A DNA stretch of 64,000 nucleotides, from positions 6,510-70,509 of the forward strand of contig CAZTWE010000001.1 in NCBI GenBank assembly GCA_964617165.1, written 5' to 3'. A model generated the notes under the pieces. It did no database searches, was not told the DNA's origin, and saw nothing but the letters and a program-made list of their open reading frames with translations. Shown here piece after piece: positions 4,278 to 27,928 of this stretch. The DNA is from an uncultured Ruminococcus sp. (GTDB taxonomy: Bacteria; Bacillota; Clostridia; Oscillospirales; CAG-272). Every line of letters starts with the position of its first letter. Position 1 is the stretch's first letter. Both the position numbers and the translations under genes were made by a program.

Positions 4278-5147
4278 ATGGAAAATTATTTGCTTATAAT
4301 AGGCGCAACGGTGCTCCTTGCACTTGATTTTGCGCTCTCAAAAAAGTATCAGTCAAAGGTTGGAACCACAGCCAAGGCGGGCCTTTTCTTCAACGCGGCA
4401 AACGGCTTGCTCACCGCAATCGTGTTCTTTGCCATAAGCGGCTTTAAGTTCACCTTTACGCCTTATTCCGCAATCATGGCGGCGCTTATGTCCTGCTTTG
4501 CAATGTGCTACTCCATAATCGGCTTCAAGGTTCTGAAAATGGGAAGCATGTCGCTTTACACCGTATTTCTCATGACGGGTGGAATGATCCTGCCCTACAT
4601 ATACGGAACTATACTGCTCGACGAGGAATTTTCAATACTCAGGCTGATAGGACTTATAATGATATTCGGTGCTATAATTCTCTCCAATGCCGGAAAAACC
4701 AAGGCAACGAAGTGGCTCGTGCTCTTGTGTGTAGCAGTATTCGTACTCAACGGTCTTGTAAGTATCGTTTCAAAGCAGCATCAGATCGAAAGCACGTATG
4801 CTACCGTAAGTGCCTCCGAGTTCGTTATGTGGTCGGGTATTACCAAGCTTATCATAAGCGGTATCGGCTTCCTCTTCGTAATGAAAGATAAAAGCTCCGT
4901 TACAGAGGGTGAGCTCGTTCGCGCGCTGCCTATAGTTGCCATATCTGCGGTTATCGGTGGAGTGTCCTATCTGCTTCAGCTGATAGGCGCTGCCGAGCTC
5001 CCCGCAACTATGCTCTACCCTTGCGTAACGGGTGGAAGCATTATCTTCTCAAGCCTTGCGGGACTTATCTTCTTCAAGGAGAAGATAAGCGTTAAGCAAT
5101 GGTGTGCCGTCGCGCTTTGCTTCGTAGGCACGTGTATGTTCATCTGA
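4278..5147 (+). CDS. DMT/EamA-like multi-pass membrane transporter (probable sugar uptake)
   Basis: 289 aa, almost entirely hydrophobic helices in two similar halves. Divergent from the AraC gene and immediately upstream of GH36. Confidence 0.55.
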   Translation: MENYLLIIGATVLLALDFALSKKYQSKVGTTAKAGLFFNAANGLLTAIVFFAISGFKFTFTPYSAIMAALMSCFAMCYSIIGFKVLKMGSMSLYTVFLMTGGMILPYIYGTILLDEEFSILRLIGLIMIFGAIILSNAGKTKATKWLVLLCVAVFVLNGLVSIVSKQHQIESTYATVSASEFVMWSGITKLIISGIGFLFVMKDKSSVTEGELVRALPIVAISAVIGGVSYLLQLIGAAELPATMLYPCVTGGSIIFSSLAGLIFFKEKISVKQWCAVALCFVGTCMFI

Positions 5148-5183
5148 TAAGTAAATCCATTTGATAAACAAAGGAGAGCTTCT

Positions 5184-11109: not shown

Positions 11110-12276
11110 TTAAAGCTCCAACTGCTTCAGGTGAGCTTGTATAAACATCTTATCTTCATCCGTAACGTTGCTTGTTGCTCTGAGTTCTGCAACGGAGCGT
11201 TTTCTGCTCTGTTTTGAAAAGATCAGCCTGCACCATCTTTTAACCTCGTAAAAGGGCAAAAGCCACCGCCTGCCGTTGAGCGAGGGGTAATAGAACCTCA
11301 GATCATCATAGGGCAACCATATACGCGATATGGCATATCTGAACTTACCGCCGCGCTTGGACTGCTGTATAACAACGTAATTTTCGCGGTTGCCATAAAC
11401 ACCGCCGCCGAGTATAAGCCGCTCCATTTGCTGCGTCAGGTCGGTATGCTCAGCATCTGAAAACCATACACGGGCAAGGTGCAACGCACTTTTGGCAAAT
11501 GTCGAAAGACCGCCTCGCGAGAGTAAGCTCTCGCGCTCGCGAAGAATATCCGCATCCTCCGTATCAAGCAGGATAAGATCGGCAAGGGGCCGTATTCCGC
11601 AGCCACCGTGCATATAATGCTTCGCCATGTGCGCTGTGTGATAATAATAAAACATGCTGTCCGAAAGGCGGCAGTGATACTCGCTGCCCCCAATGGGCTC
11701 CGCGTATTGCCACACGTTTTTAAGCACCTCGTCGAACGCTGCAAACTCATCCTCTTCAATGAGCGAGTAATGAAGCTCAAAATGAACTCCGCTCGGAGAG
11801 ATCATTCCTATATCGTGCGAGTTTACTTTTCCTGCCTCGTATTCAAGCTTGCTGACAATGATATTCTTAGCACGCTCCAGGTCCACTTCGCGCACAAGAA
11901 TGTCTATATCGCAGCTTGTTCTCATCCAAGGCTCCGGATAATAGCTGCGCATGACTGAGCCTTTCAAGGGAATAAACTGTATCCCCGCCTCCTCAAGCAC
12001 CGAGCAAAGCGATCTGAACTCATGAGCGAACTGAGCATATCGGAACGTAGCAAGCAGCTTTTGTATTTTCAGCTTTTTTGCGTACTCACTGTCAAAAGTG
12101 AGCTCTGCATGCTCCAATGCCGATGCTACAAGATGCGCCATATCATGCTTTTTAGAAAGCGAATAAAGCTTTTCGACGTCGTCTGTGCCGATGCTGTCGC
12201 GAAGCTCCGCGGATATTGGCTTACCGCATATTTCGCTCTTTATGAGCTGCATGAGAAAAAGGGTTGTACGCTCCAT
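11110..12276 (-). CDS. uncharacterised nucleotidyltransferase-fold protein (NTP_transf_5-like)
   Basis: PLKGSVMRSYYPEPWMRTSCDIDILV motif of the polymerase-beta NTase fold. Start set to ATG 12276 (MERTTLF) with AGGAGG upstream; the track start at 12468 runs into the upstream gene. Confidence 0.6.
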   Translation of the reverse strand: MERTTLFLMQLIKSEICGKPISAELRDSIGTDDVEKLYSLSKKHDMAHLVASALEHAELTFDSEYAKKLKIQKLLATFRYAQFAHEFRSLCSVLEEAGIQFIPLKGSVMRSYYPEPWMRTSCDIDILVREVDLERAKNIIVSKLEYEAGKVNSHDIGMISPSGVHFELHYSLIEEDEFAAFDEVLKNVWQYAEPIGGSEYHCRLSDSMFYYYHTAHMAKHYMHGGCGIRPLADLILLDTEDADILRERESLLSRGGLSTFAKSALHLARVWFSDAEHTDLTQQMERLILGGGVYGNRENYVVIQQSKRGGKFRYAISRIWLPYDDLRFYYPSLNGRRWLLPFYEVKRWCRLIFSKQSRKRSVAELRATSNVTDEDKMFIQAHLKQLEL

Positions 12277-12298: not shown

Positions 12299-13378
12299 TT
12301 ATTCGTTGCCGCAATAGAATACCTTATACCATTCGGCAAAGCGGCGAAGTCCCTCGCGAAGCGGAGTCGCGGGCTTAAAGCCGAAATCGCGCAGCAATGC
12401 GGAGGTATCCGCATAAGTAACGGGCACGTCTCCCGCCTGCATAGGCACAAGACGGCGGTGCGCCTCAAAATCGTAATCCTCGGGAAGAACGCCTGCTCTC
12501 ACAAGCTCCTCACAAAGAATATTGACAAAATCCAAAAGATTTTCGGGGTTGCTGTTGCCTATATTATATACACGGTATGGGGGTACGGGCAATCCGTCCT
12601 CACCAACGGCGTGCTCGGGAGCGCATCTCATAATACGCTTAACTCCCTCGACTATATCGTCAACGTACGTGAAATCTCTCTTGCAATTACCGTAGTTGAA
12701 TATATCTATTACGTCACCGCGTATGAGCTTATTTGTAAAGCCGAAATACGCCATGTCGGGTCTGCCGGCAGGACCGTAGACGGTGAAGAAGCGCAATCCC
12801 GTTGTCGGAATATCGTAAAGCTTTGAGTACGCATGAGCAAAAAGCTCGTTGGACTTTTTCGTTGCCGCGTAGAGCGACACGGGATTGTCCACCTTATCAT
12901 CCGTAGAATACGGGATCTTTTTGTTTGAGCCGTAGACCGACGAGCTTGAAGCATATACAAGATGCGACACGGGGTAGCGTCTGCACGCTTCAAGTATATT
13001 GTAGAAGCCTATAATATTAGCCTCTATATATGCATCGGGATTGGTTATAGAATAGCGCACGCCCGCCTGAGCCGCAAGGTTTACAACGATCTTAGGGCGG
13101 TATTCCGAGAATACTCTCTCTATCTCAGCCTTATCCGCTATATTAGCACGAACGAACGTCCACCCGGAGCCTGTTTTTACCGAAGCAAGCTCCTCAATCT
13201 TTTGGAGTCGGTACTCTTTTATGGAAACGTCATAATACTCGTTCATATTATCCATACCGATAATATGTATATTATCAACCGTTGACAGCAGCTCTGTCAC
13301 AAGATTTGCACCGACGAAGCCTGCCGCACCTGTAACAAGTACAGTGCTGCCCGAAAGCTTAACGTTTGGAGTCAGCAT
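12299..13378 (-). CDS. NAD-dependent UDP-glucuronate 4-epimerase-like SDR
   Basis: VLVTGAAGFVGANL Rossmann motif, MDNMNEYYD, YAATKKSNE (YxxxK), RFFTVYGPAGRPDMAYF; typical of the Cap1J/GAE-type subfamily. Confidence 0.75.
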   Translation of the reverse strand: MLTPNVKLSGSTVLVTGAAGFVGANLVTELLSTVDNIHIIGMDNMNEYYDVSIKEYRLQKIEELASVKTGSGWTFVRANIADKAEIERVFSEYRPKIVVNLAAQAGVRYSITNPDAYIEANIIGFYNILEACRRYPVSHLVYASSSSVYGSNKKIPYSTDDKVDNPVSLYAATKKSNELFAHAYSKLYDIPTTGLRFFTVYGPAGRPDMAYFGFTNKLIRGDVIDIFNYGNCKRDFTYVDDIVEGVKRIMRCAPEHAVGEDGLPVPPYRVYNIGNSNPENLLDFVNILCEELVRAGVLPEDYDFEAHRRLVPMQAGDVPVTYADTSALLRDFGFKPATPLREGLRRFAEWYKVFYCGNE

Positions 13379-14112
13379 ACCGTGATCCCCCTGTAATTTT
13401 TCTTTACCTCTTCGTAGCTTTCAAGATTACCTATATCATAACGCTTGCCGGGCATCTGCATCGCATGAACGGCAGTTACGCCGCACAGCCATGCGATATA
13501 GCTTCCGGGGGCATCCGTGCCGCAGCCTGCGGCAATGCCGCAGCCGACGCGCTTAGCATCTTCCTTAGTATAATAATAGAAAGGCGGGCAGCACCAATGC
13601 GATTCGGGCACAGCGGGCTTTTCTACCATTTTTACGATGAGGTCGTTCTCGTCTGTAGTGAGTACACCGCACTTGGTAAGCTTCTTTTCGCTTTCCTCGT
13701 AATATCTCATTACGGCAGACGTGTTCTTTTCCTTAGCGTAGGAAATAAATTTTGTGAGACTGAAATCAAGAACGTTATCTCCTGCAATAACGAGCATATC
13801 ATCGTCAAGCGCGAGCTTATCAATGGCAAACTGCACGTCACGCACAGCGCCGAGGCGCGTCTCATTGCTATCCGTTCCGTCGTCAACGACGGTTATTTTA
13901 TACGGCTTTGTCGCAGCCCATGCATCGAAATGATGCGCAAACTTATGATTGGATATAACGACAAATTCATCGACCTCGCCCGACTCGTTTATATCGTCCA
14001 GAAGCCAATCCAGTATAGTCTTATCTCCTACTTTAAGCAACGGCTTAGGGAAATTCTCCGTCAGCGGATAGAGCCTTGTTGCATACCCTGCCGCCAGTAT
14101 CAAGCATTTCAT
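13372..14112 (-). CDS. sugar-1-phosphate nucleotidyltransferase
   Basis: N-terminal LILAAGYATRLYPLTENFPKPLLKV signature. It overlaps the neighbouring genes by 4 and 7 nt. Confidence 0.8.
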   Translation of the reverse strand: MKCLILAAGYATRLYPLTENFPKPLLKVGDKTILDWLLDDINESGEVDEFVVISNHKFAHHFDAWAATKPYKITVVDDGTDSNETRLGAVRDVQFAIDKLALDDDMLVIAGDNVLDFSLTKFISYAKEKNTSAVMRYYEESEKKLTKCGVLTTDENDLIVKMVEKPAVPESHWCCPPFYYYTKEDAKRVGCGIAAGCGTDAPGSYIAWLCGVTAVHAMQMPGKRYDIGNLESYEEVKKNYRGITVC

Positions 14113-15320
14113 TTAATGTCGTCCTCCTCGTCAAATATATCGCTCTCACCGAGATGCACACCGTCCGAGCTGTCGCATATATATGCGGAATATTTACCGC
14201 GAAGCTCAGGGAATTCCTTGAGATATTCGCGCTCCACGCGCTCCTTTATACTGTCCTCATAAGAGGGATCTATAATAGCCATACAGCAGCCCTTGAAGCC
14301 TGCTCCCGAAAATCTTCCGCCGTATATACCGTCGGTGGTAAGCATTATCTCATAGAGCTTTTTCAGCTCGGGAGAGCCTGTCTGCCAGTTATATATAGAC
14401 GAGCGTCCACTCTCGAAGCTGAGCCTGCCAAACTCCTCTATATCACCGCGCCGCCAAGCCTCAGCACCGCGCTCGACTCTGTCAAACTCGGTGTACCAAT
14501 GCTCCGCTCTCTTGTAGAAGCTTTCGGGCAGTCTATGCCCATGCTCGCGGAACACCTCATACGGAACGTCACGCAGGTTTGTTTCGGCAAGCTTGCCGTA
14601 GGGCATCCCCGAAAAGGCTTTCAGCATATATGCCGCCGAGCGACATTCGTCAACGCGCATATTGAACGCTGAGCCTGCAAGCGAACGCTCCACGCCAGAG
14701 AAGAATATAGCAAACTTATAAGGCTTCATTTTGGGGCTTGTAGGAATAAGCTCAAAGCTATCGTCAAGCAGATCCATATACAGAAGATGATCGCGCTTGC
14801 AATAGATCTCGCAGCTCTGATCGAGCTTTCCGCATGCCACGCCTACGTACCTGTTCTCCGCCTCCTGCGATATTTCTATAAGCTCCTTTGCGGTAAGCGA
14901 AATGTTATTCAACCTGCACAGCGCGGAAATAAAGGTTATTATAACCGCCGCCGATGAGGACAAGCCGCCGATCGGCAGCTCACCGTCAACCACCGCGCAA
15001 AGTCCGACTCTCAGCGGATAACGCCTGTTCAGCGCCTGCGTTGCACCGCGCAAATGATCCGCCCAGTCGCCCTCCCGCACGGGCGGCACCGACGAAACAT
15101 GCCACTGCGCCCTCTTCGGGAACTGCATTGAGGATATTTCCACAACACCGTTCATCTTCGCCCCGTAGGCAATATATATTCCCTTGTCAATCGCGAAGCC
15201 CGTGATCTTTCCGAGCTGATGGTCGCTGTGCGCCCCTATCGGACAGATGCGGTACGGCGTAAACGCCACACCCATCGGCTCACGCTTGTAGATTTCATGA
15301 AAATATTTGTTATGATTCAT
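14109..15320 (-). CDS. GHMP-family sugar-1-kinase (galactokinase-like, non-canonical signature)
   Basis: GHMP ATP motif PIGGLSSSAAV. The galactokinase-signature position reads YRICPIGAHSDHQLG instead of GEHxDY. Confidence 0.75.
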   Translation of the reverse strand: MNHNKYFHEIYKREPMGVAFTPYRICPIGAHSDHQLGKITGFAIDKGIYIAYGAKMNGVVEISSMQFPKRAQWHVSSVPPVREGDWADHLRGATQALNRRYPLRVGLCAVVDGELPIGGLSSSAAVIITFISALCRLNNISLTAKELIEISQEAENRYVGVACGKLDQSCEIYCKRDHLLYMDLLDDSFELIPTSPKMKPYKFAIFFSGVERSLAGSAFNMRVDECRSAAYMLKAFSGMPYGKLAETNLRDVPYEVFREHGHRLPESFYKRAEHWYTEFDRVERGAEAWRRGDIEEFGRLSFESGRSSIYNWQTGSPELKKLYEIMLTTDGIYGGRFSGAGFKGCCMAIIDPSYEDSIKERVEREYLKEFPELRGKYSAYICDSSDGVHLGESDIFDEEDDIK

Positions 15321-15894
15321 TTAGATACTCCGTTGTTACTTTTATTCCAAGTTTGCGAACCGTTATCGCTGATTTTCTTTGCAGGAACACCGGCTACTGC
15401 TATACCAGCTTCTAAAACGTCTTTGTTTACGACTGCATTTGCACCGATTGCAACATTGTCCGCAACATGAATACCACCAACTAAAACTGCACCAACACCG
15501 ATAATCACATTGTTCCCAAGGATCGGTGCTTCATTAGTTCTTCCGCCTGCAACCAGCGCTGTATTCATGTGTATAATACACAATTTTCGCCAACCTTCGA
15601 TTTATAATTTATCAAAATCGGACCTACATGCATAATTCTTAATCCCTTTTCACAAACATTTAAAGGAATATGCAAGGAATATTTATTAGACATCTTCATC
15701 AGTCTAATTCTAAATATGAGCGCTCGAAGCTTTTTATTGGTATTAAGATAGTATTCGGAGTTGCGTAAAAGCCACAAATATTTTCTAATAATATCTCTCT
15801 CGCCAATCTGCAAATGATATGTTATAAAATTAAATTTATAACGAGAAAGCTCTAAATCGAGATAATCTCTTAACTGTGCTTTTGTTTTTATCAT
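15317..15894 (-). pseudogene. frameshifted hexapeptide-repeat O-acetyltransferase (WcaB/CysE-like)
   Basis: The N-terminal part (15565..15894, ends ...VGENCVLYT*) and the left-handed beta-helix part (15317..15583, ...NTALVAGGRTNEAPILGNNVIIGVGAVLVGGIHVADNVAIGANAVV...) lie in different frames. The break maps to the GAAAATTG stretch (T4 run at plus 15584-15587). Confidence 0.7.
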
Positions 15895-16001
15895 TAAATT
15901 TCTCCTAACTGCAAAAATAAAATTCCCGTACTCTTTCTACAAAACTGTTCCCATCCGGCTCACGATTGTAATTCTCATAGAATATTCTTTAAGTCCTATT
16001 T

Positions 16002-16187
16002 CTAATGCACTATCTTTCCTTTTATCAGCTTTGACAGCATATTTTGAATAACGCATGCCAAAATCGCAAATCCCAATGCAAAAATATAACTCACAAAAGC
16101 ATTTGTGTTTAAATTTTCTTTCGATATTATGTTAATGGGAATTATATGCCACAAAAACAGCCACAATGAATTCTTAGATACCCACAC
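16002..16187 (-). pseudogene. C-terminal remnant of a membrane acyltransferase (acyltransferase-3-like)
   Basis: 61-aa hydrophobic ORF with SLWLFLWHIIPI, resembling the conserved C-terminal LWH motif of about 340-aa O-acyltransferases. There is no room for the missing N-terminal about 280 aa. Confidence 0.4.
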
Positions 16188-16207
16188 ATTTAATTCTATA
16201 TAGCTGT

Positions 16208-17674
16208 TTATTTAGATCTTTGCGAAAATATGCGAGAGAGGAACGGTATTTGCGATAACTGTTTTCTTCCGTTTGGGAAAGCCATAAAGCAAATGGTATA
16301 AATAACTATGCATATAAATATCGAAAGCACTTGCCATAGTATGTTATCGGATATTTGAAGCATCAAAAATCCGAATGTTCCCATTACAACAGCCGACAAC
16401 AATGAGGGGAGTGTGTTATTTAAAACATCTATAAATCTTATCTTCATTGAAATCTGTGATATCGTAGACGTTATTATAATCAGAATAACCGCTGAAATGG
16501 TATTACAAATAGTTACCGCAGCATAATCAATCGAAGCACCGTAGTACAATACCGGAATTAAAACGACAAGATACAGCGATTGAGCAAGCATGGATAATTT
16601 GGGTTTTCCTCTGCTTCTGAAAACCTCACTATTTAAATAACTGTATACTATCAACAACGCCTGAACCAATGAGCGCATTCCTAAAAACAGAGACGTCTCA
16701 GACCATTGATTTCCCAATAATATTTTTGTAACCAATTCATGATATACAAACATGCCGACTCCCAAAGGAATTAGCAACATGGCAAGAAAACATTGAAATT
16801 TAAAAAATACATTTTGAAATTCAACTTCATTATCCTGAACCCTGGACAATGCGGAAAACATAACAGGGATTGCCGATTGCTGTATGATGCCGAAATAACT
16901 TGATACTGTTGTTATAGTTGTTTTATATAAACCTAAATAGTAAGAGCCAAGTAATGAAGCTAAAATTAAAGTTCCAATATTTGTGCTTAACCATATAGTA
17001 ATATTCTCAGCAATTGTCCATACGCTGAATGATAGCATTGCTTTTAATTCTTTAAAGTTATAGTTAAATCCCGGTTTCCATTTTGAAAGAAAAGTCAACG
17101 CAACGGCATTTACAACATCTTTAGCGAGAATTCCAATGACCAACGCCCAATAACTATGGAAGATAAAAGCAATAGGCACCGTCACAACCAACGGTATGAA
17201 TGAAACCACCATACGAATGGGAAACAGTCTCTTGAAATCGAAATCTCGCTTAAACCTAGCTAGCTGAATGCTGGAAAAAGCCAACAAGGGAATTTCCGCA
17301 CTTATTATTATGATAGCAAGTTCATGCCCCGCTGAGCCTACAAGTGATGCTATAGGTTTAACGAAAACGGCAATAACACCCCAAATCAAAAATGATAATA
17401 TGAGATTTGTCCAAAAAGCTACGTTTGTACTAAGATTGTATTCTTTCTCATTTTCAAATTCATGCTGAATTAAATATTTTTGAAAACCTGCATCAGTGAA
17501 AATCTCAGCAAAGGTTGTTACCATTGTAAGAGTAGCAACTACTCCGAATGCTTCCGGAACTAAAAGTCTTGCAAGAATAGCATTAGTTATTGGAGCAACT
17601 AATTTTGAAACGATTTCTGTTATCGTTGACCACTTTGTGGCCTGTCCAATTTTTTTATTCAATTCTTCGGACAA
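16208..17674 (-). CDS. wzx: Wzx-type oligosaccharide flippase (MOP superfamily)
   Basis: 488 aa, multi-pass membrane protein. N-terminus KWSTITEIVSKLVAPITNAILARLLVPEAFG is typical of polysaccharide-biosynthesis flippases. Confidence 0.85.
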   Translation of the reverse strand: MSEELNKKIGQATKWSTITEIVSKLVAPITNAILARLLVPEAFGVVATLTMVTTFAEIFTDAGFQKYLIQHEFENEKEYNLSTNVAFWTNLILSFLIWGVIAVFVKPIASLVGSAGHELAIIIISAEIPLLAFSSIQLARFKRDFDFKRLFPIRMVVSFIPLVVTVPIAFIFHSYWALVIGILAKDVVNAVALTFLSKWKPGFNYNFKELKAMLSFSVWTIAENITIWLSTNIGTLILASLLGSYYLGLYKTTITTVSSYFGIIQQSAIPVMFSALSRVQDNEVEFQNVFFKFQCFLAMLLIPLGVGMFVYHELVTKILLGNQWSETSLFLGMRSLVQALLIVYSYLNSEVFRSRGKPKLSMLAQSLYLVVLIPVLYYGASIDYAAVTICNTISAVILIIITSTISQISMKIRFIDVLNNTLPSLLSAVVMGTFGFLMLQISDNILWQVLSIFICIVIYTICFMAFPNGRKQLSQIPFLSRIFSQRSK

Positions 17675-17732
17675 ATTATCACCTCATTTCATATTAGCTT
17701 ACACCGCTTTGCCAGCTCGCCTTATGTATTAA

Positions 17733-18866
17733 CTACTTGTATATTCTGGAAACCCTATTTGATATATTACATAAAATCTCATAGCCGATAGTATCTATAG
17801 ATGAAGCGATATCATCGGCTGTGATTACTTGATCTCCGCTTCTTCCGATAAGGACAACCTCATCACCGAGTTTTACGTCAGGAATATCCGAAACATCAAT
17901 CATCATTTGATCCATGCATATACGTCCTAAAATTCCGGCTTTCTTTCCTTTTATAAGAACGTATCCCTTGTTTGACAAGGCTCTGCTGTAACCGTCTGCA
18001 TATCCGGTTGAGACCGTTGCGACAAGCATCTCGCTCTCAGCCTTAAATGTTCTTCCGTAGCCTATTGTGCTGTCAGCGGGAACGCGCTTTACCATTGTTA
18101 CAACGCTTTTCCATTCGAGTGCAGGACGAATTTCTTTCGGCAAAGATACATCTGATGACGGTTTGAGCCCGTACAATGAAATTCCAAGCCTGACAACGTT
18201 ATGAACAGACTTCGGAAGTCGTATTTGAGATAAGCCGCCAGCGGAGTTGAGACAATGAACATACTGTAAGTTCAAATGTGAAAGCTTACTTGCAACAACA
18301 CCGAAAATTTCGATTTGCTTCTCTGTAAATTCAAGATTTTCATCTGATGCGGAATCAGCCACAGCCAAATGAGTAAAAATACCGTTTAAATTGAATATTT
18401 TCGAATATTTTTCAACTATAGCTACAGTTTTATCAATGTCAGATGCATTCAAACCAATCCTGTTCATACCGGTATCTATAGCAAACTGACACTTTATTTT
18501 ACCGTTTGTTTTGTTTGTTTTGTGTGAAAGCTGCTCAGCATATTCCTCGGAAATCAACGTCTGCGTAAGATCATATTCTGACAAAGCTTCAAAACTCTCT
18601 GTCGGAGTATAACCAAGTATAAGAATTTCGCCTTTAACGTTTCCACGGCGCAGTCTTATTGCTTCTTCAACGTTGGAAACTGCAAAATAATCAATACCGA
18701 TGCTTTCCAATGCCTTTGCAACTTCGATATCCCCGTGACCGTATGCATTAGCTTTTACTACTGCTATAATATCCTTTGTATTTTCATATTTGCAAAAGAT
18801 TGAACAGTTTTGTTTTATTTGGTTTAAATCAATTTCACACCAAGATCTTTTTATACTATCCCACAT
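17733..18866 (-). CDS. alr: alanine racemase
   Basis: PLP-lysine motif AVVKANAYGHG, DTGMNRIGL, C-terminal beta-domain (GYGRTF ... GYADGY ... RICMDQ). The start ATG lies 2 nt after the ATP-grasp stop codon. Confidence 0.9.
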   Translation of the reverse strand: MWDSIKRSWCEIDLNQIKQNCSIFCKYENTKDIIAVVKANAYGHGDIEVAKALESIGIDYFAVSNVEEAIRLRRGNVKGEILILGYTPTESFEALSEYDLTQTLISEEYAEQLSHKTNKTNGKIKCQFAIDTGMNRIGLNASDIDKTVAIVEKYSKIFNLNGIFTHLAVADSASDENLEFTEKQIEIFGVVASKLSHLNLQYVHCLNSAGGLSQIRLPKSVHNVVRLGISLYGLKPSSDVSLPKEIRPALEWKSVVTMVKRVPADSTIGYGRTFKAESEMLVATVSTGYADGYSRALSNKGYVLIKGKKAGILGRICMDQMMIDVSDIPDVKLGDEVVLIGRSGDQVITADDIASSIDTIGYEILCNISNRVSRIYK

Positions 18867-18868
18867 TT

Positions 18869-19786
18869 TTATTTCTTATCAGGCAAAATCAACATGTTTC
18901 CAAGCTCTAAATCATGATCGGGATTTTTGAAAGGCATAGTTCCCGACGTTGGGAAAAACGTTAATTCTGAAAAATAAATTTTACTGTTTATTTCATAAAG
19001 ATCAACCCTCAAAAAAGGTATACCCGACGAGAGTTTTTTCGCTATTTCTATCATTTCATCAAAGCAAACAGGCTTTTGAGGAAGTTCCTCATACGGGAGA
19101 TAATCACTTCTCTGATACGGTGCAAACTGCCAATCCAAGGTTACGAAACTTATCCTTGCAGTTGAATGATCTTCAAGCCCTTTGGATATGTAAAGGAATT
19201 TAGGGTCTCCGTTAAAGCAATAAAACTTATAATCTGTCAGTCCGCTTGCAGCAACATGATCCTCCATGTACTGTTCAGCTATGATTCTCGGCTTCACATC
19301 CTTATACGGCCATTCTCTGCCGCTCCAATAATAGTTTCTTCCCAAACTACGTTGGATTTTTTTCTTAGCTCTGTCAAAATCAAAGGTAGCCTTATTTTTG
19401 CATATTGCTAAACCACCACTATCATGAGTGCATTTTAAAACAAATTCATTGGGAAGATTGTCAAAATCAATATCCTCAAATTTTTCCCAAACTCCAAGTG
19501 TAGGAATTATGTACTCTTCACCTATTTTTTGAGATACGTAGCGCTTAGCCTCATATTTGTCTACCATTTGAGTATACAATGGTTTTCTATCATAGAGCTT
19601 TAACCACTGTAGTTTTTCATTAAAAGTTCTTACATTCTTCAAATTTAAAGGTTTTTTCAAGGTTGACTTATATGCACATCTTAAATATACCGAGTCGGGA
19701 AGCCATTTCATGTATCCTCTGGAGCATAATGACGTTATCAAACTCGAAGGATGCGAAATCAAATGCAATATTTTTTTGAGATTCAT
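18869..19786 (-). CDS. ATP-grasp amidoligase, TupA-like
   Basis: KLQWLKLYDRKPLYTQMVDKYEAKRYV ... EFVLKCTHDSGGLAICKNK ... FLRVDLYEINSKIYFSELTFFP resembles the TupA-like ATP-grasp family (from memory). Start set to ATG 19786 (GGAG 7 nt upstream) rather than TTG 19798. Confidence 0.7.
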   Translation of the reverse strand: MNLKKILHLISHPSSLITSLCSRGYMKWLPDSVYLRCAYKSTLKKPLNLKNVRTFNEKLQWLKLYDRKPLYTQMVDKYEAKRYVSQKIGEEYIIPTLGVWEKFEDIDFDNLPNEFVLKCTHDSGGLAICKNKATFDFDRAKKKIQRSLGRNYYWSGREWPYKDVKPRIIAEQYMEDHVAASGLTDYKFYCFNGDPKFLYISKGLEDHSTARISFVTLDWQFAPYQRSDYLPYEELPQKPVCFDEMIEIAKKLSSGIPFLRVDLYEINSKIYFSELTFFPTSGTMPFKNPDHDLELGNMLILPDKK

Positions 19787-19798
19787 ATTACACTCCAA

Positions 19799-20890
19799 TT
19801 AGTTTTCAAGTAATTTATTTGCAAATGTTAGCCATTTATTCCCTATAATTTCACTATTAAAATCCTCGCGCACTTTGCTTGCATTGGCTGCTAATTTGGT
19901 TGCAAGCTCTTTGTTTTCGACAATTTCAACCATGGCATTATATAAAGATTTTGCATCTCCGACAGGAACTAAAATTCCATTTTCGCCATTGCGTATAAGC
20001 ATACGCGGTCCACCGCAAGGACAATCGGTAGATATACAAGGTAATCCAATCGCCATAGCCTCCATAAGTGCATTTGGCATTCCCTCAAAATCAGAAGATA
20101 AAACAAAAAGTCTTGCATCCTTGATGAGATCTAAAACGTTGAGCTTATTACCGGGTAAATCTATATGACACTGTAGGGATTTTTCCGCTATATATTTCTC
20201 CGTTTCTTCTCTCAAACCGCCCTCACCGTATATAGTAAGTCTCATTTCGGGATGCTTTTCTAACAGCAATTCAAAAGCATCTATAAGCAGCTTATGATTC
20301 TTCTGAGGATTCAATCGTCCCATTGTTACAATTGTATTACTCTTTGGCGAATAATCAATCAATGGGATCTCTCCATCCGGAATTGGATTAGGTATTATTA
20401 CGCTTTTCGATGCAATCTTTTTACCGTAAAAATCGCGTGCATCAGGAGTTTGAAAAACATACCCATCACTAAATTTCATGAAGAATCTTGCTACAGTTAT
20501 AGCCAATTTATTACCCGCAAAATGTGCAGGATCGTTTCTTTCGGATACTATCACTTTTGCCCCTATTCCGAAAGTGGATGGAATAATATACGAACAGTCC
20601 GGGACACTCATGACTATAATTACTTTAGGTTTTAACTCTTTTAAAATCTTATGATAGATTTTTATAGCACCAAAATATTCCTTTGGTCTCATATATGTAG
20701 TCTTATCACGCGCAGAAACTCGCAAAACTCTCTCGTCAAGCTCATATTCATTTTCTGTAGGCGCTGTTGATGTTACAATAGCTACTTTTTTGCCATTATC
20801 AGCAAAATACTTAGCCAATCTTACAGTAACACGTTCAGCACCACCGCGTTTCAAGCTTCCCATGATAGCAATATCTATGTTTTGTGACAT
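19799..20890 (-). CDS. GT-B glycosyltransferase (GT4-like)
   Basis: C-terminal EX7E-type region LSSDFEGMPNALMEAMAIGLPCISTDCPCGGPRMLI. Confidence 0.85.
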   Translation of the reverse strand: MSQNIDIAIMGSLKRGGAERVTVRLAKYFADNGKKVAIVTSTAPTENEYELDERVLRVSARDKTTYMRPKEYFGAIKIYHKILKELKPKVIIVMSVPDCSYIIPSTFGIGAKVIVSERNDPAHFAGNKLAITVARFFMKFSDGYVFQTPDARDFYGKKIASKSVIIPNPIPDGEIPLIDYSPKSNTIVTMGRLNPQKNHKLLIDAFELLLEKHPEMRLTIYGEGGLREETEKYIAEKSLQCHIDLPGNKLNVLDLIKDARLFVLSSDFEGMPNALMEAMAIGLPCISTDCPCGGPRMLIRNGENGILVPVGDAKSLYNAMVEIVENKELATKLAANASKVREDFNSEIIGNKWLTFANKLLEN

Positions 20891-20901
20891 CTCTAACCCC
20901 T

Positions 20902-22020
20902 TTATTGATAGAATGTGTAATACGGAAAATAAGTATATGCATCAGACCAACCGTAATACAGCAAAAAGTACACCACGCACATTCCTAATATAATTATGCG
21001 TGCAAAAAACTTTTTATATCCCGTAGAATTCTCAACTGCCTTAGCAAATGCGATAGCGTTAACGCATCCAAAATAGTAGCTCATTCTATACAAAAAATAA
21101 GATGTGTATCCTGCTAATCTGGATGGAAAGACAAGCATGATGGTATTACTGATTTTACGTTCACGATCTATTCGTCTGCGATAAAAAAGTGCCGGAATAA
21201 CTGTGGGAATCATAGTTAATACAAGCCCCAATCCCAAACTGACCGCCTCATATCCTACGAAATATTTCTCGTAATATTTCGTTCCAACAAATAATCTTCC
21301 CACAACAGACATGATAGGTTCAAGAGCAAATGCTGATACAGCAATCAAAATAAAATAAACTAGCTGTCTTACATTGGATTTTCTGTTAAATTGAACTGCA
21401 TATGTAAGCACGGCAGCGGGTATCGCACTCATGTGTATCAATCCGGCAATGACAGATAAAAATACGTATGGCTTAATCTTTTTGTTATAAGCATACCAAT
21501 ATGCATACAACATAATCGATACTGCTATCATCTGTCTCGCCTGATTAAATAGCAAAGGACCATAACAACTTAAGAATACAAGTATTGCAAACGCAGATTC
21601 TTTTATTTTCCACTTTTCTATGGTCAATATAACAAAATACATCGTAATAAAAGCGATAAGAGAAAAGTATATTTGAACGTTTGCATCTGTCATCCTGCTA
21701 ACCAACCAACGAAAAAGTTGAAACAGTACGGCTGATGCATCTTCTGCAAGTGCCTGTTCAAGAGACATTCCGCTTTGACTTACATATACATTCCACATAT
21801 TGAACGTATCTGCGCCTACCGTTTGACCTCTTATTCCAACCATTATGGAAATAGGAGCGATAACTATAATTCTAAGTATGAACTTAATTACAAACGGTAA
21901 TTTCACCTTAATGCATATAACGTTGTTATAGAAATATACCATTGCAGATGAAATCAAAAACACAATCCATAATTTTACTATAGATTCACCGTAGAAACTC
22001 AAGCTTTGAAAAAAACTCAT
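20902..22020 (-). CDS. EpsG/Wzy-like polysaccharide polymerase
   Basis: 372-aa highly hydrophobic multi-pass protein with no soluble domain, placed among glycosyltransferases; composition typical of the EpsG family. Confidence 0.65.
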   Translation of the reverse strand: MSFFQSLSFYGESIVKLWIVFLISSAMVYFYNNVICIKVKLPFVIKFILRIIVIAPISIMVGIRGQTVGADTFNMWNVYVSQSGMSLEQALAEDASAVLFQLFRWLVSRMTDANVQIYFSLIAFITMYFVILTIEKWKIKESAFAILVFLSCYGPLLFNQARQMIAVSIMLYAYWYAYNKKIKPYVFLSVIAGLIHMSAIPAAVLTYAVQFNRKSNVRQLVYFILIAVSAFALEPIMSVVGRLFVGTKYYEKYFVGYEAVSLGLGLVLTMIPTVIPALFYRRRIDRERKISNTIMLVFPSRLAGYTSYFLYRMSYYFGCVNAIAFAKAVENSTGYKKFFARIIILGMCVVYFLLYYGWSDAYTYFPYYTFYQ

Positions 22021-22023
22021 ACC

Positions 22024-23187
22024 TCATCCTTTTGAAGCAACATCAATACCGGCAGCCTCACTGATAAATATTTTACGCTTATGGTTAATTTTGTCAAACT
22101 CATATTCTTTCGCAGATTCAAAATTCTTTTTTGCTTGCGCATACATCTCATCACGTGTCATACTCTCTATGCATTTGCATATATCAGAAACCGATTTTCT
22201 TCGGCAAACGTATTTCTTATCAATAAGCTCCGGGATTCCGGCGGTTTTGAAGCCTATCGCGGGCATGGCACAGCTCATTGCCTCAATCATAGCACGCGGC
22301 AATCCTTCTTGCAACGAAGGCTGTATGTATATATCAGCTTTAGATAAATGATCGTATACCTCATCATGCTTTATGGAACCTGTAAATATTACATTATCCG
22401 TCAGTTCATAACGTTCGCACAAATTACGGAGTCTGTCTTGGTTGCCGCCACCTATTATGATATATCGCAAATCATATCCCTTTTTCTTCAATTTGTACAT
22501 GGCTTCCAAAACATAAGCCTGTCCTTTGTATTTTACATCAACCGCAGCAGTTGTACACAATGTCATTGTCTTCATATCGGTTGACTCTATCTTTTCAAGT
22601 CTTTGCGCCAAAGCTTCTTCTCGAATACCGGTAATTTTAACATTGGATATTCCTATAGATTTTCCATTTGTAGGATACTCTTTTTGCAAAAACTGCTGTG
22701 TTACATAAACAACATAGTTTGCATTCTTAATCATATTTTTTGCTTGGATTTCAAAATAAGGCGCAACAAGCTTTCCTTTCAGTGAATAATTCCAATTTGC
22801 ATCCCAAGAGCTACCTACAACCTCTACAACATAAGGCTTATTATATTTTTTGGCATACTTTACAGCTATTGCTGCAAAAAAAGACTGCCGTGCTATTACA
22901 AAATCGACTGCTAATACCTCTTTTTCGATGTATGCCTCTATTTCTTTACGTTTAGTAAAATATTCGATTGCATTAAGCCCCAATTTGGTAAGATGAAAGT
23001 TTACATTATCTGTGCTTGATATCGTATACCGTTCCGGATTATCACATTCTTTGACACGTCCCACAATGTTAAGTTCATCAAAAATATTTAAGTATCTTTC
23101 CTGCCATACAGTGGCAGTTTGGGAAGTTTCATAGTAAAGTTCTCCATGTTTCATATACTTGGTTGAATAGACGAACAAAGCTTTCAT
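22024..23187 (-). CDS. GT-B glycosyltransferase (GT4-like)
   Basis: QPSLQEGLPRAMIEAMSCAMPAIGFKTAGIPELI. Start set to ATG 23187 (MKALFVY, AAAGGGGA upstream), 1 nt after the upstream stop. Confidence 0.85.
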   Translation of the reverse strand: MKALFVYSTKYMKHGELYYETSQTATVWQERYLNIFDELNIVGRVKECDNPERYTISSTDNVNFHLTKLGLNAIEYFTKRKEIEAYIEKEVLAVDFVIARQSFFAAIAVKYAKKYNKPYVVEVVGSSWDANWNYSLKGKLVAPYFEIQAKNMIKNANYVVYVTQQFLQKEYPTNGKSIGISNVKITGIREEALAQRLEKIESTDMKTMTLCTTAAVDVKYKGQAYVLEAMYKLKKKGYDLRYIIIGGGNQDRLRNLCERYELTDNVIFTGSIKHDEVYDHLSKADIYIQPSLQEGLPRAMIEAMSCAMPAIGFKTAGIPELIDKKYVCRRKSVSDICKCIESMTRDEMYAQAKKNFESAKEYEFDKINHKRKIFISEAAGIDVASKG

Positions 23188-23188
23188 T

Positions 23189-24349
23189 TTAAAAATCCCC
23201 TTTCTTGGCATAATACGGTTTTAGGAAATCATCTGTAATACTATCCCACGAATAATTTCTTGCTGCATATTCTCTCATTTCCTGTGCAACGTTTTTATTA
23301 TCTTTGTAAGACAAATAAAACTCTTCTACTGCGTGCATGTCGACCAAGCTTTCATCATCAGGAATTTCCATCACATAAGGGTAATTTTGAGGAACGCAGA
23401 CTTCTTCACCCGCGTAAAAATACGGAATGCCTATTCCGAAATATTCTTTTGTTTTCAAACCTGTACCCTTTTTACCGCCTACACGATGCTGACAAACAGG
23501 ACCAATTCCTAAATTACATAAGCTGTATATATCGGTTAATTCCTGTCCAAACTTCTTTCCGTATAAAAATACATGATTTTCCAAACCAAGATCATTCACA
23601 AGTTTTTTTGTGCTGTCATTTATTGTACCAACTAAATGTAGATTGATTCTCCTAGCACCAGGAAAAGCTTTATTGTATTCGTACAAACTCTTTATCAGCC
23701 TATCATATCCATGGTATGGTCTCTCAATAGCGACCGATATCATATTTATTTCCTCAGGATCACCAACATACACATGCTTTTCCAGTTTATCTAATGATAT
23801 ACCGATAGATGCATGAACTGTTTTTTTGCCCCATAAATATTCCAAATCTCCCTCTGTTAGAAACGTATCAATTTGTTCAGCCGCAATCTTGTGAAACAAA
23901 TCAGTATTGAATGTCATGTATTTGCTTTTCAAGTTTGAAAACTTGATACCGGGAAAGTAACTATGCATGTCAACAATAACATGCGATTTTTTTCGCTTTT
24001 TTATTGTTTTCAGTAGTGCAATGTACGGAATATCAAACCCAAGCCATCTCAAAAAGGCAATATCAACTTTGGGTTCAAAATTTTTTAAATACGAATTGGC
24101 AACACTCAACAATTCAAATCGCCTTGAAATCGCTCTAAGCTTTTCATTTTTAAATAGATACTTCTTTTCATAAATAAGTTGATCATTGTTATCAAACACT
24201 TGTATCCCATTTTCCCCATACGCTGTATAAAATACTGCATGTCCTTTTTTTCTAAAAGCATCTATAGTACCTTTTAATTTTTTTGTAACGCCTATACTAT
24301 CATCCGAAGGAGTAAAATTAACGACCATAAAAATATTCAGCAATTCCAT
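23189..24349 (-). CDS. divergent GT-B-fold glycosyltransferase
   Basis: Two Rossmann-like halves and a C-terminal GKKGTGLKTKEYFGIGIPYFYAG. It lacks a clean EX7E motif. Confidence 0.55.
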   Translation of the reverse strand: MELLNIFMVVNFTPSDDSIGVTKKLKGTIDAFRKKGHAVFYTAYGENGIQVFDNNDQLIYEKKYLFKNEKLRAISRRFELLSVANSYLKNFEPKVDIAFLRWLGFDIPYIALLKTIKKRKKSHVIVDMHSYFPGIKFSNLKSKYMTFNTDLFHKIAAEQIDTFLTEGDLEYLWGKKTVHASIGISLDKLEKHVYVGDPEEINMISVAIERPYHGYDRLIKSLYEYNKAFPGARRINLHLVGTINDSTKKLVNDLGLENHVFLYGKKFGQELTDIYSLCNLGIGPVCQHRVGGKKGTGLKTKEYFGIGIPYFYAGEEVCVPQNYPYVMEIPDDESLVDMHAVEEFYLSYKDNKNVAQEMREYAARNYSWDSITDDFLKPYYAKKGDF

Positions 24350-24358
24350 GTAAAAACC

Positions 24359-25537
24359 TCATTTAACTTGTAGTAAGGAATCATGATAGATACCTGTCAA
24401 CGAATCATAGAGCATGATGTAACCTAGAACGTTGTTCTCCAACGTATATTCGCTGTGAACACGTTTATAATTGCGTTCTTTAACCTGATTTAATGCATTT
24501 CTGTCTTTATCCCATGCTTCTATGTGAGCGGCAAACTCGCTTGCCTGTTCACAAACCGTATCGGGATCGCTTACTACCTCGACAGAGCCGCCCGCATCGG
24601 TTGTAAGCACTGCTGTTTTTCTACTCATCGCTTCAACTATGGTTCTTCCGAAAGATTCGGATTTCGGGTAAGACGTTAAAACATAAACGTCGATATTGTA
24701 ATAAAAGCTCTCCATATCTGCGAACGGAACGTTTATCTTGCCCTCAAATCTATCACCGTACTTGGAGCGCATCCTGTCAAACAATTGCTCTGTTTCACAT
24801 TTTGAAGCATCATCCAAACAGCTGATATACATAACGTATCTGGCGTTTGGTACAAGCTTTTCGGTCTCGGAACATATTTCCTCTGCCAAGGGCCAGCCTT
24901 TCCAATCGCACATTCTACCCGCAAAGCCTACCGTCAGAAAATCATTATTACCGACCCTTGACTCGTCTATACTCTCGTAAATTTCTCCTGCAGTATTGTA
25001 AATCACACGGTATTCAAGCGAAATTTTCTTTTTCTCATTAGCTTCAACCCAGCTTTGCTTGTTGAAATCAGTAGTCGTAACGAGCACGTCCAAGTATTTG
25101 AAAGAAAAATGGAAAAGGTTCCTGAAAAAAGAATTATATTTGGTGTAAAGTCCTCTATCGGTATGTACAAGCGTAATTTTTCTGCTTATCATTCTGAATC
25201 TTTTCAGCATTGAAACGATAAAGAAGCTTACCTGACTGTTTGAATGAATTATTTTGGGGTTTATCTTTTCTATAAGTGCGGCTATCTTAAACATGTACCC
25301 CAAGAACGCAAAAGGATTTTTTATAAGCTCTTTCATTCTTTTGCATTTAGTCCGCCAATAAAAATCAACGTTGTCTATTTTTTCGTTAAATTCCCCGGGC
25401 TGTATAACCGCAATCTTATGTTTTTTGCTTGCCCCGTTAATTATTATCAGCTGCGACTCTCTTTCACCGCCGAGAAATCCTAAATTGTTATCGTTTATAA
25501 TAACAATTTCAGCCTCTTTAACCGTTTCGTTTTTCAT
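24359..25537 (-). CDS. GT-B glycosyltransferase (GT4-like)
   Basis: LTSYPKSESFGRTIVEAMSRKTAVLTTDAGGSVEVV. Confidence 0.85.
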   Translation of the reverse strand: MKNETVKEAEIVIINDNNLGFLGGERESQLIIINGASKKHKIAVIQPGEFNEKIDNVDFYWRTKCKRMKELIKNPFAFLGYMFKIAALIEKINPKIIHSNSQVSFFIVSMLKRFRMISRKITLVHTDRGLYTKYNSFFRNLFHFSFKYLDVLVTTTDFNKQSWVEANEKKKISLEYRVIYNTAGEIYESIDESRVGNNDFLTVGFAGRMCDWKGWPLAEEICSETEKLVPNARYVMYISCLDDASKCETEQLFDRMRSKYGDRFEGKINVPFADMESFYYNIDVYVLTSYPKSESFGRTIVEAMSRKTAVLTTDAGGSVEVVSDPDTVCEQASEFAAHIEAWDKDRNALNQVKERNYKRVHSEYTLENNVLGYIMLYDSLTGIYHDSLLQVK

Positions 25538-25538
25538 T

Positions 25539-26246
25539 CTAGACCTCCAAAAGCTCTTTTGCGGACTTTTGACCGCTGAGGTATTCAGCCTCAGTTATTT
25601 CGCCTTTTTGAAGCAGATAGTCTCCGAAATCAAGATCGGAGGCTGTACCGTCTCTGACGGTATCCGAGCGCTTCAAAACCTTGGCTACGGTTTTGAATAT
25701 TATCTTTATATCTCCGAGCAGCGAAATTCCGCTGTCTATGTATTCAAGATCGTATTCGAATTTCTTTTCCCACGTGATGTTGTTTCTGCCGTTCACCTGT
25801 GCAAGCCCTGTCAGCCCCGGGCGCACGTCATGGCGGCGGCGTTGCTCGCCCGTCATAAATACCATATCGCGGACAAGCTGAGGTCTCGGACCTACTATTG
25901 AGAGGTCGCCTTTGAGAATATTTATAAGCGAGGGAAGCTCGTCTGCCGAGGTGGAGCGCAGGAACTTACCGTAGGCATTGAGGCGCATCTCGTCGGGCAG
26001 AAGATTTCCGTGCTCATCCTTGGCATTGGACATCGTGCGCAGCTTCAGAAGATAGAAGATCTTTTCATTGCCGTTCTTGTCCTTTTTGCCGGGGCGCGGT
26101 TGTACGAAGATCGGGTTCCCTCTCATTGCTATCGCACCGATCAGCATCAATATCAAAAGAAACGGTGCAAGTATTATCAGGGCGATGAGCGATAAGAGAA
26201 AGTCCAAAAGGCGTTTGAAAAATTTAGAATACATAACAGTCTCCAA
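25539..26246 (-). CDS. small monotopic phosphoglycosyl transferase (PglC/EpsL-like initiating sugar transferase)
   Basis: Single N-terminal re-entrant helix, PIFVQPRPGKK, DELPSLINILKGDLSIVGPRP, PGLTGLAQVNGRN. Confidence 0.9.
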   Translation of the reverse strand: METVMYSKFFKRLLDFLLSLIALIILAPFLLILMLIGAIAMRGNPIFVQPRPGKKDKNGNEKIFYLLKLRTMSNAKDEHGNLLPDEMRLNAYGKFLRSTSADELPSLINILKGDLSIVGPRPQLVRDMVFMTGEQRRRHDVRPGLTGLAQVNGRNNITWEKKFEYDLEYIDSGISLLGDIKIIFKTVAKVLKRSDTVRDGTASDLDFGDYLLQKGEITEAEYLSGQKSAKELLEV

Positions 26247-27899: not shown

Positions 27900-27928
27900 A
27901 GTATACCACTTCATACGCAAAAAGTCAA
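27900..27928 (-). promoter_or_regulatory. candidate sigmaA promoter of the EPS operon
   Basis: Minus strand reads TTGACT (27928-27923), 17 nt, TATACT (27905-27900). This implies a leader of about 400 nt before ATG 27484. Confidence 0.4.

Follow-up and report, generated by a model that had tools for sequence, protein, structure and literature searches.

An alanine racemase gene directly behind a TupA-like ATP-grasp gene in a Clostridia polysaccharide locus: a predicted D-alanine supply for an amide decoration

We analyzed a 64,000-nucleotide stretch of DNA from an uncultured Ruminococcus sp. (contig CAZTWE010000001.1), which we call the window and to which all coordinates refer unless a related locus is named. 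Within an 18-kb Wzx/Wzy-type surface-polysaccharide locus, the minus strand of this window carries a gene for a TupA-like ATP-grasp protein (18869..19786) followed directly by a gene for an alanine racemase, alr (17733..18866). The pairing of these two genes goes beyond chance, and the pair is present in at least ten other polysaccharide clusters. The reading that we prefer, and which we hold to be slightly better than an even bet, is that the cassette-borne alr feeds D-alanine to an amidoligase, which links it as an amide to a uronic acid in the repeat unit on the cytoplasmic face of the membrane, before export by Wzx. The surface polysaccharides of such Clostridia clusters would then probably be decorated with D-alanine. 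The elements of the pair are as follows.

18869..19786, minus strand: TupA-like ATP-grasp amidoligase of 305 amino acids (PF14305), predicted to form an amide bond to D-alanine
18867..18868, minus strand: spacer of 2 nt (AA), read directly from the sequence
17733..18866, minus strand: cassette-borne alanine racemase of 377 amino acids (PF01168 and PF00842, TIGR00492), predicted to be a dedicated D-alanine supply

The ATP-grasp open reading frame (ORF) runs from 19786 to 18869, with an ATG start that has a GGAG 6 nt upstream and a TAA stop at 18871-18869. The racemase ATG (18866) follows after exactly 2 nt, in the junction ...GATAAGAAATAA-AA-ATGTGG..., so that the spacing given in the original prediction is borne out by reading the sequence directly. 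The racemase ORF (18866 to 17733) includes the motif VVKANAYGHG. Because the racemase start has no separate Shine-Dalgarno sequence of its own, the arrangement is consistent with translational coupling of the racemase to the ATP-grasp gene. A promoter and terminator scan, in which counts were at the level of shuffled sequence, gave no terminator between the two genes. The pair is flanked upstream by a glycosyltransferase family 4 (GT4) gene (19799..20890) and downstream by a gene for a Wzx-type flippase (16208..17674). The GC content at third codon positions (GC3) is 0.343 for the ATP-grasp gene and 0.336 for alr, compared with 0.29-0.43 over the block 15317..25537 and 0.52-0.62 for the conserved locus genes on both sides. 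By this composition, the pair belongs to the variable, serotype-type core of the locus and not to its conserved frame; the earlier placement of the two genes between GT4 and Wzx in an AT-rich cassette thus holds on both its Pfam neighbors and its GC3.

The 305-residue ATP-grasp protein matches PF14305 (ATPgrasp_TupA) at 240.3 bits over profile positions 1-240 of 241, nearly the full profile of the family that had been expected from the letters. Residues K118, E171, R260, D262, and E274 are invariant among 32 homologues and by their conservation would have nucleotide- and Mg-binding roles. An AlphaFold model made with the 32 homologues (pLDDT 91.5, pTM 0.89) confirms the ATP-grasp fold. Its Foldseek matches were D-Ala:D-Ala ligases (Ddl), LysX/ArgX, PsnB, and RizA, with E of about 1e-6, and they reach a TM score of only about 0.4 at 10-16% identity, with no close solved structure; a sequence search of the PDB with the protein gave no match. 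Many of the top-scoring homologues are longer forms of 440-490 amino acids, in which the C-terminal half of the domain seems to be present twice, and in one related locus (L025, 5992..7352; related loci carry our own numbers) the extra C-terminal part is a separate ORF of 126 amino acids.

The racemase has the two expected Pfam matches, PF01168 at 191 bits in the N-terminal barrel and PF00842 at 169 bits in the C-terminal domain, and it passes the NCBIfam alr equivalog TIGR00492 (362.2 bits against a cut-off of 168), in agreement with the earlier call of a full-length alanine racemase. Numbered as in the Geobacillus stearothermophilus enzyme, in which Lys39 is the pyridoxal phosphate (PLP) lysine and Tyr265' the second catalytic base, equivalents of Lys39, Arg136, Arg219, Tyr265, Met312, Asp313, and Tyr354 are all present. 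Across 151 aligned racemase relatives, Lys39, Tyr265', Arg136, Arg219, Met312, and Asp313 are invariant or nearly so. Judged by its sequence, the window protein is an ordinary, intact alanine racemase.

The recurrence of the pair was examined from the side of each gene. Eleven close racemase homologues (56-97% identity) were looked up in a larger protein collection, and in seven of them (56-61% identity) ATPgrasp_TupA is the immediate upstream gene. All seven lie in polysaccharide loci (L162, L163/164, L165/166, L170, L172, L173, and L174), with junctions of -8 to +21 nt. One other (97%, L171) comes from another strain of the same species and sits in a polysaccharide locus whose contig ends upstream, and the remaining three (57-58%) are in non-polysaccharide contexts (PGK-TIM...alr...CLC twice and MlrC-alr once). 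Adjacent ATP-grasp and alr genes were also found in L025, L070, and L083, so that the co-occurrence that the original prediction proposed to look for in other loci is present. The order is ATP-grasp then alr, again at -8 to +21 nt, in nine other loci; L070 has the reverse order and a gap of 88 nt. The relatives come from uncultured Oscillospiraceae and other Clostridia of the gut and rumen. A second sample consisted of 80 metagenome loci found by searching with the racemase, and in it both of the closest relatives are polysaccharide linked: L083 (57%) has an ATP-grasp gene directly upstream, and in L082 (54%) the racemase gene is followed by one for a phosphoglycosyltransferase. All 78 relatives at ≤49% identity had no polysaccharide-locus gene within 6 kb. 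The ATP-grasp side was sampled as 80 species-representative genome loci encoding ATP-grasp relatives (41-69% identity), and an alr lay within 100 bp of the related gene in 2 of the 80, L070 (a goat-omasum Clostridia metagenome-assembled genome [MAG]) and L025 (an Acutalibacteraceae MAG). By rough estimate, if about 2,500 genes include one or two alr, chance would give about 0.1 such adjacencies.

The strongest argument for alanine as the substrate comes from L070, in which genes for GT4, an ATP-grasp, and a second GT4 are followed by a row of alanine dehydrogenase, alr, and ATP-grasp genes (the three together at 3668..6948) and then by Wzy and Wzx. The dehydrogenase scores 499.6 bits with the TIGR00518 equivalog, above its cut-off of 391.85, and the row would lead from pyruvate to L-alanine to D-alanine to a ligase. 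A second line of evidence is a neighbor-joining tree with a single clade that holds the alr-adjacent ATP-grasps of the window, L165, L170, L172, L173, and L174 (the latter five 61-66% identical to that of the window), whereas four other alr-adjacent ATP-grasps fall outside it, those of L162/163 nearby and those of L070 and L025 apart. The extra ATP-grasp paralogues of the same loci (47-48% identity) are placed elsewhere in the tree. On sequence grounds, such a clade fits an ATP-grasp subfamily specialized for the product of the racemase. The recurrent pair, the L070 row, the clade, and the alanine-type residues of the racemase together lend comparative support to the proposal that this alr is a dedicated D-alanine supply for an ATP-dependent amide ligation.

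The related loci differ in how far they resemble the window. Counterparts of its GHMP kinase and nucleotidyltransferase accompany the pair in L165, L170, and L173 (72-79% identity) and a lone racemase in L171, and its type of short-chain dehydrogenase/reductase (SDR) was confirmed in L170 (78%) and L171; an SDR also follows the nucleotidyltransferase at the end of L173. L165, L170, and L173 have differing glycosyltransferase sets; they represent homologous loci in related species, and in each the pair lies in the variable part. The gene sets of L162-164, L172, L174, L025, and L070 are quite different. Several loci (L070, L173, and L174) encode two or three TupA-like ATP-grasps, which suggests that a single polymer bears several different amide decorations or a short peptide. 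These paralogues are divergent (L174, 1604..5561; L173, 1..808 and 5082..6008; L070, 1339..2322 and 6001..6948), and one per locus is adjacent to alr. Within the tree of racemases, the subclade of the window protein has four looked-up members, all four polysaccharide linked, as is one member of a neighboring subclade. We also considered whether L082 (1170..2954), with an ORF of 594 amino acids that joins alr to the phosphoglycosyltransferase, could serve as Rosetta stone evidence and rejected it as a lost stop codon: the residues ...RVFLK, at which a standalone relative of 93% identity terminates, are followed immediately by a TAT codon, and the transferase still has a GGAGG and GTG of its own. 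None of the 120 best database matches was such a fusion, and only the adjacency of the two genes stands.

From analogy with characterized systems, we infer that the amine donor is D-alanine and the acceptor a uronate, as well as the timing and polarity of the step. In the mechanism that we favor, alr would convert cytoplasmic L-alanine to D-alanine, and having its own racemase would free a horizontally exchangeable cassette from the D-alanine pool needed for peptidoglycan. The ATP-grasp enzyme would make an acyl-phosphate on the uronate carboxylate of the undecaprenyl-diphosphate-linked repeat unit, the target carboxylate most probably being C6 of a uronic acid such as galacturonic acid (GalA) or glucuronic acid (GlcA). 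The amino group of D-alanine would then attack the acyl-phosphate to yield an N-(uronoyl)-D-alanine amide. Because ATP is needed, amidation is predicted to take place in the cytoplasm, ahead of Wzx flipping and the joining of units by the EpsG-type polymerase.

The pair is part of a run of 16 genes, all on the minus strand, that extends from 27484 to 9169. Its gene set, with an initiating phosphoglycosyltransferase, four or five glycosyltransferases, an EpsG-type polymerase, and a flippase in one direction, is that of a Wzx/Wzy polysaccharide locus. Apart from the pair, its features are the following, in the direction of transcription.

26255..27484, minus strand: DegT/PglE-type sugar aminotransferase (PF01041, 262 bits), the first gene of the locus, in its conserved higher-GC part
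25539..26234, minus strand: small PglC-like initiating phosphoglycosyltransferase, 231 amino acids from its ATG (PF02397, 178 bits; start checked)
19799..25537, minus strand: low-GC variable block (Pfam matches; GC3 0.29-0.43), made up of the next five genes
24359..25537, minus strand: GT4 glycosyltransferase (Pfam)
23189..24349, minus strand: glycosyltransferase-like protein (Pfam)
22024..23187, minus strand: GT4 glycosyltransferase (Pfam)
20902..22020, minus strand: EpsG-family, Wzy-like polymerase (Pfam)
19799..20890, minus strand: GT4 glycosyltransferase (Pfam)
16208..17674, minus strand: Wzx/MOP flippase of 488 amino acids (PF13440, 254 bits; PF01943, 98 bits)
15317..15894, minus strand: split CysE/EpsC-like hexapeptide acetyltransferase, in overlapping frames 15565..15894 (109 amino acids) and 15317..15583 (88 amino acids)
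12299..15320, minus strand: conserved higher-GC triad, a candidate acidic-sugar supply by its family matches, made up of the next three genes
14109..15320, minus strand: galactokinase-like GHMP sugar-1-kinase (PDB galactokinases at 130 bits; below the galactokinase cut-offs)
13372..14112, minus strand: sugar-1-phosphate nucleotidyltransferase (family match)
12299..13378, minus strand: SDR epimerase, nearest to UDP-hexuronate 4-epimerase-type enzymes (5U4Q, 361 bits; 6ZL6, 128 bits)
11110..12276, minus strand: uncharacterized nucleotidyltransferase (PF14907, 136 bits)
9169..11076, minus strand: membrane-anchored PglF/CapD-type UDP-GlcNAc 4,6-dehydratase (PF02719, 401 bits), at the end of the locus

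Several of these assignments stop at the family level. The aminotransferase reaches 313 bits with the LegC-family model TIGR04181, under its cut-off of 420, and the TuaB and MOP flippase models match Wzx, and the PseB and FnlA models the dehydratase, each below cut-off. A promoter-like site (27928..27900) lies ahead of the aminotransferase gene, in a scan that was at background level. The Hexapep and EpsC/CysE matches of the split acetyltransferase are confined to its 3' piece, and two genes are called there, identically, in an independent public assembly (L001), in which the 12.5-kb cassette is 100% identical. This gene is probably a frameshifted pseudogene, so that an O-acetyl group borne by relatives may be missing from the polymer. 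The PF14907 nucleotidyltransferase recurs at the ends of other loci (L070, 9970..11106; L170, 12350..; L171, 4286..5452). Outside the locus, the window carries ordinary housekeeping genes (Mfd, Pth, ThrRS, FakA, DegV, glycoside hydrolases, and regulators), and the 64 kb contain no second alr and no Ddl or dlt genes. Among its larger ORFs there were also no genes for a chain-length regulator and tyrosine kinase (CpsC/D) or for LytR-type attachment; these may lie elsewhere in the genome. A Gram-positive Wzx/Wzy locus with neither CpsC/D nor a LytR-type ligase nearby is unusual.

A uronate carboxylate as the acceptor, the first of two options in the original prediction, is favored by precedent only. 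The top PDB relative of the SDR is 5U4Q (361 bits), deposited under a generic name, which we take to be the Klebsiella UDP-galacturonate 4-epimerase; the Bacillus cereus UDP-GlcA 4-epimerase 6ZL6 follows at 128 bits. The literature gave no useful information on the function of 5U4Q, and a tblastn search of plasmids with the SDR returned generic names only. With the sugar-1-kinase and the nucleotidyltransferase, this SDR is, by homology, a possible acidic-sugar supply, and the triad could be a salvage route from a sugar or uronic acid through the sugar-1-phosphate and the nucleoside diphosphate sugar to an epimer that feeds the polymer.

Several observations weigh against a dedicated D-alanine supply for a uronate amidoligase. 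A motif search for UDP-glucose 6-dehydrogenase (Ugd) found none in the 64-kb window or in the related loci, so that a uronic acid in the repeat unit is suggested solely by the homology of the SDR. On the ATP-grasp side, 78 of the 80 loci lack alr, among them that of the closest relative (L002, 69% identity) and that of Tetragenococcus (L003), and the family therefore does not generally need a dedicated racemase. The neighbor-joining trees carry no support values. In the racemase tree, a single polysaccharide-specific clade was looked for and not found: polysaccharide-linked racemases are scattered, no sequence signature marks them, and racemases from housekeeping contexts (57-58%) are as similar to the window protein as polysaccharide-linked ones are. 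Finally, L171 has a flank with 97% DNA identity to the window and a racemase gene with 95.6% nucleotide identity, and this gene directly abuts that of the GHMP kinase (L171 1..1250 against window 15331..18847), with no Wzx and no acetyltransferase remnant between them. The 84 bp upstream of the racemase there end a different ORF, unlike the 3' end of the ATP-grasp gene; an ATP-grasp gene may lie further upstream, past the contig end. On this arrangement the two genes are not inseparable, and the cassette is mosaic around alr.

Of the other ways to read the pair, the one that survives best reverses the polarity of the ligation. The ATP-grasp enzyme would activate the carboxylate of D-alanine and join it to the 4-amino group of an initiating 2-acetamido-4-amino-2,4,6-trideoxyhexose of the bacillosamine/AATGal type, so that the resulting N-(D-alanyl) amino sugar would keep the alanine amine free and cationic. 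Encoded in the locus are a dehydratase of the PglF type, an aminotransferase of the DegT type, and a small transferase like PglC, but no intact N-acetyltransferase; the window has no Ugd, and DegT and the pair are combined in L162-L164 as well. The original prediction was right about this gene set and about the lack of an EpsM/PglD-type acetyltransferase, although the locus does hold the split O-acetyltransferase-type hexapeptide protein of the CysE/EpsC kind. It does not follow that a 4-amino sugar is the acceptor. A dehydratase, an aminotransferase, and a small phosphoglycosyltransferase with no acetyltransferase are how free-amine AATGal sugars are made, and the missing acetyltransferase is therefore no proof of reversed polarity. 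Activation of a D-alanine carboxylate does occur among ATP-grasp enzymes, for example in Ddl, which also heads the fold matches (TM about 0.4), but this match is generic for the ATP-grasp fold and says nothing about the substrate. Moreover, no aminotransferase is present in the 12 kb seen of L070, L165, L170, and L172, and the sole biochemically characterized TupA-like member activates a sugar carboxylate (PMC11800379). We regard reversed polarity as unlikely. A broader form of it, to which we likewise give a small chance, is that the module, instead of amidating a uronate, activates D-alanine itself and hangs it, amine free, on an amino or hydroxyl group of the repeat unit, which would amount to a cytoplasmic, Dlt-independent D-alanylation by which an acidic capsule or wall polymer of gut Clostridia becomes zwitterionic. 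In that case the racemase, with the alanine dehydrogenase in L070, would let the trait move between strains as a self-sufficient unit.

It is rather improbable that alr is an extra or housekeeping peptidoglycan racemase that rides on the cassette, for example by offsetting a metabolic load, while the ATP-grasp enzyme attaches another amine such as an L-amino acid or ethanolamine. The mostly alr-free TupA-like loci, the equal similarity of housekeeping-context racemases, the L171 racemase that has no visibly adjacent ATP-grasp gene, and the single alr of the 64-kb window would all suit such a passenger. Set against them are the adjacency of the pair in nine other loci and in L070 with differing glycosyltransferase sets, the gathering of six alr-adjacent ATP-grasps in one clade, the L070 row from alanine dehydrogenase through alr to ATP-grasp, and the GC3 of alr, which is that of the acquired cassette and not of the core genome.

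We also considered a VanT-like racemase that makes D-serine or has a broad spectrum, so that the decoration would be a D-serine amide. The top NCBIfam score of the window racemase is indeed for the VanT-G catalytic subunit (vanT-G-Cterm, 399.8 bits), and its top PDB match is the VanTG serine racemase 4ECL (266 bits). The VanT-G score, however, does not reach the curated threshold of 460, whereas that for the alr model exceeds its own, and the scores for the remaining VanT models are far under their cut-offs. In the alignment to 4ECL, the window protein has IGYEIL, with Tyr, where VanTG has ITNELL, with Asn, and Tyr is found in 144 of the 151 relatives; this is the Tyr354 position, which tells alanine from serine racemases. 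The residue equivalent to the carbamylated Lys129 is Ala in the window racemase, which could be taken as a sign of altered specificity. We rejected it as such, because 132 of the 151 relatives, housekeeping-context ones included, also have Ala. The exchange is a trait of the lineage, shared by most of the Clostridia relatives, and says nothing specific to this gene. Together with the alanine dehydrogenase that adjoins the pair in L070, these features make a serine racemase very improbable.

D-Alanyl esters are the classical D-alanine decoration of Gram-positive wall polymers, and we know of no TupA-like enzyme that forms esters. That the ATP-grasp enzyme makes a D-alanyl ester on a sugar hydroxyl, as a Dlt-independent D-alanylation of a surface glycopolymer, is likewise very improbable: some ATP-grasp enzymes do form esters (the omega-ester peptide ligase PsnB is among the fold matches) and the window has no dlt genes, but the characterized member forms an amide at a uronate (PMC11800379) and the K17 capsule of Acinetobacter baumannii shows an amide (PMC9676051).

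If amidation of a uronate with D-alanine is the correct reading, a TupA-like ATP-grasp gene directly followed by alr would be a two-gene signature that predicts D-alanine-bearing surface polysaccharides in uncultured gut and rumen Clostridia, the capsule chemistry of which is largely unknown. Decoration with D-amino acids affects capsules in their charge, their antigenicity, their phage receptors, and the ease with which enzymes degrade them. The two enzymes of the pair could be assayed directly or put to use in installing D-alanine amides on glycans.

Among known systems, the closest on the racemase side is VanT with the VanC/VanG D-Ala:D-Ser ligase of enterococcal vancomycin-resistance operons, in which an alr-family racemase (fold-type III, PLP dependent) likewise provides a D-amino acid for a co-encoded ATP-grasp ligase; VanTG is also the closest solved structure to the window racemase, at 266 bits. 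There, however, the ligase is of the Ddl family and not TupA-like, the product is a peptidoglycan precursor dipeptide, and VanT has Asn where the window racemase, which passes no VanT model, has Tyr. The Dlt system likewise decorates a Gram-positive surface glycopolymer with D-alanine from a cytoplasmic, alr-made pool. Its labile esters are formed outside the cell, by way of an adenylating enzyme, a carrier protein, and transfer across the membrane, whereas the bond predicted here is a stable amide made by an ATP-grasp enzyme in the cytoplasm, in a window with no dlt genes.

The predicted product is that of the A. baumannii K17 capsule, in which a hexuronic acid in a Wzx/Wzy capsule unit bears a D-alanine amide that is attributed to one dedicated and rare tailoring gene, the protein of which, Alt1, we presume to belong to PF14305. 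In K17, the D-alanine amide is on D-GalNAcA (N-acetyl-D-galactosaminuronic acid), and the annotation of alt1 is that of a D-alanine transferase (PMC9676051, PMC7200062). The gene is in only three K loci, and its sources mention no racemase at an A. baumannii K locus (PMC9676051, PMC7200062, bioRxiv 10.64898/2026.07.20.739706). K17 differs in its Gram-negative host and in that structural and genetic data together gave alt1 its function. PF14305 has as its founder and named members TupA of the Bacillus halodurans teichuronopeptide and the WemR type of Proteus O-antigens, which share with the window protein a place in loci for acidic, amino-acid-bearing polymers (PMC13419641). In the excerpt of PMC13419641 used here, which cites Iyer et al. 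2009, TupA-like ATP-grasps are predicted to add amino acids to surface polysaccharides; their function is a prediction there too, and that excerpt reports no associated racemase.

The nearest biochemical precedent is the Campylobacter jejuni HS:2 capsule. Cj1438C, the C-terminal TupA-like ATP-grasp domain of Cj1438, uses ATP to amidate the GlcA C6 carboxylate in the growing capsule; the amine donors, ethanolamine phosphate and serinol phosphate, come from the in-locus Cj1436 and Cj1437, and UDP-GlcA comes from the in-locus Cj1441 (PMC11800379, PMC12409886). It is the sole member of the TupA-like family that has been assayed (PMC11800379). The family is the same by the description of that paper as TupA-like and by PF14305 here, and both systems would place an ATP-dependent amide-forming enzyme, which in our case is predicted, in a surface-polysaccharide locus that carries its own maker of the amine donor. 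They differ in the donor, which in C. jejuni is made via a decarboxylase or transaminase and dephosphorylated later, whereas here it would be D-alanine made via a racemase. They also differ in setting, since Cj1438C is a domain of a three-domain polymerizing glycosyltransferase of an ABC-transporter capsule and the window protein stands alone in a Wzx/Wzy locus of a Gram-positive lineage.

Thus, the ligase family, the principle of an in-locus amine-donor maker, and the D-alanine uronamide product are each already known, and with precedent for ligase, donor logic, and product the pair opens no new category. A search of the literature for an alanine racemase in an exopolysaccharide, capsular polysaccharide, or O-antigen locus found no relevant paper. 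The novelty that the original prediction saw in a racemase and ATP-grasp tailoring pair therefore stands for the racemase and is lower than implied for the rest, given C. jejuni and K17 (PMC11800379, PMC12409886, PMC9676051). What we found no prior description of is the dedicated racemase in a glycan locus, as a recurrent module of ATP-grasp and alr, sometimes with alanine dehydrogenase, in Clostridia. If our reading is correct, the principle of a tailoring ligase encoded with the maker of its donor, biochemically shown only in C. jejuni, would extend to amino-acid racemases.

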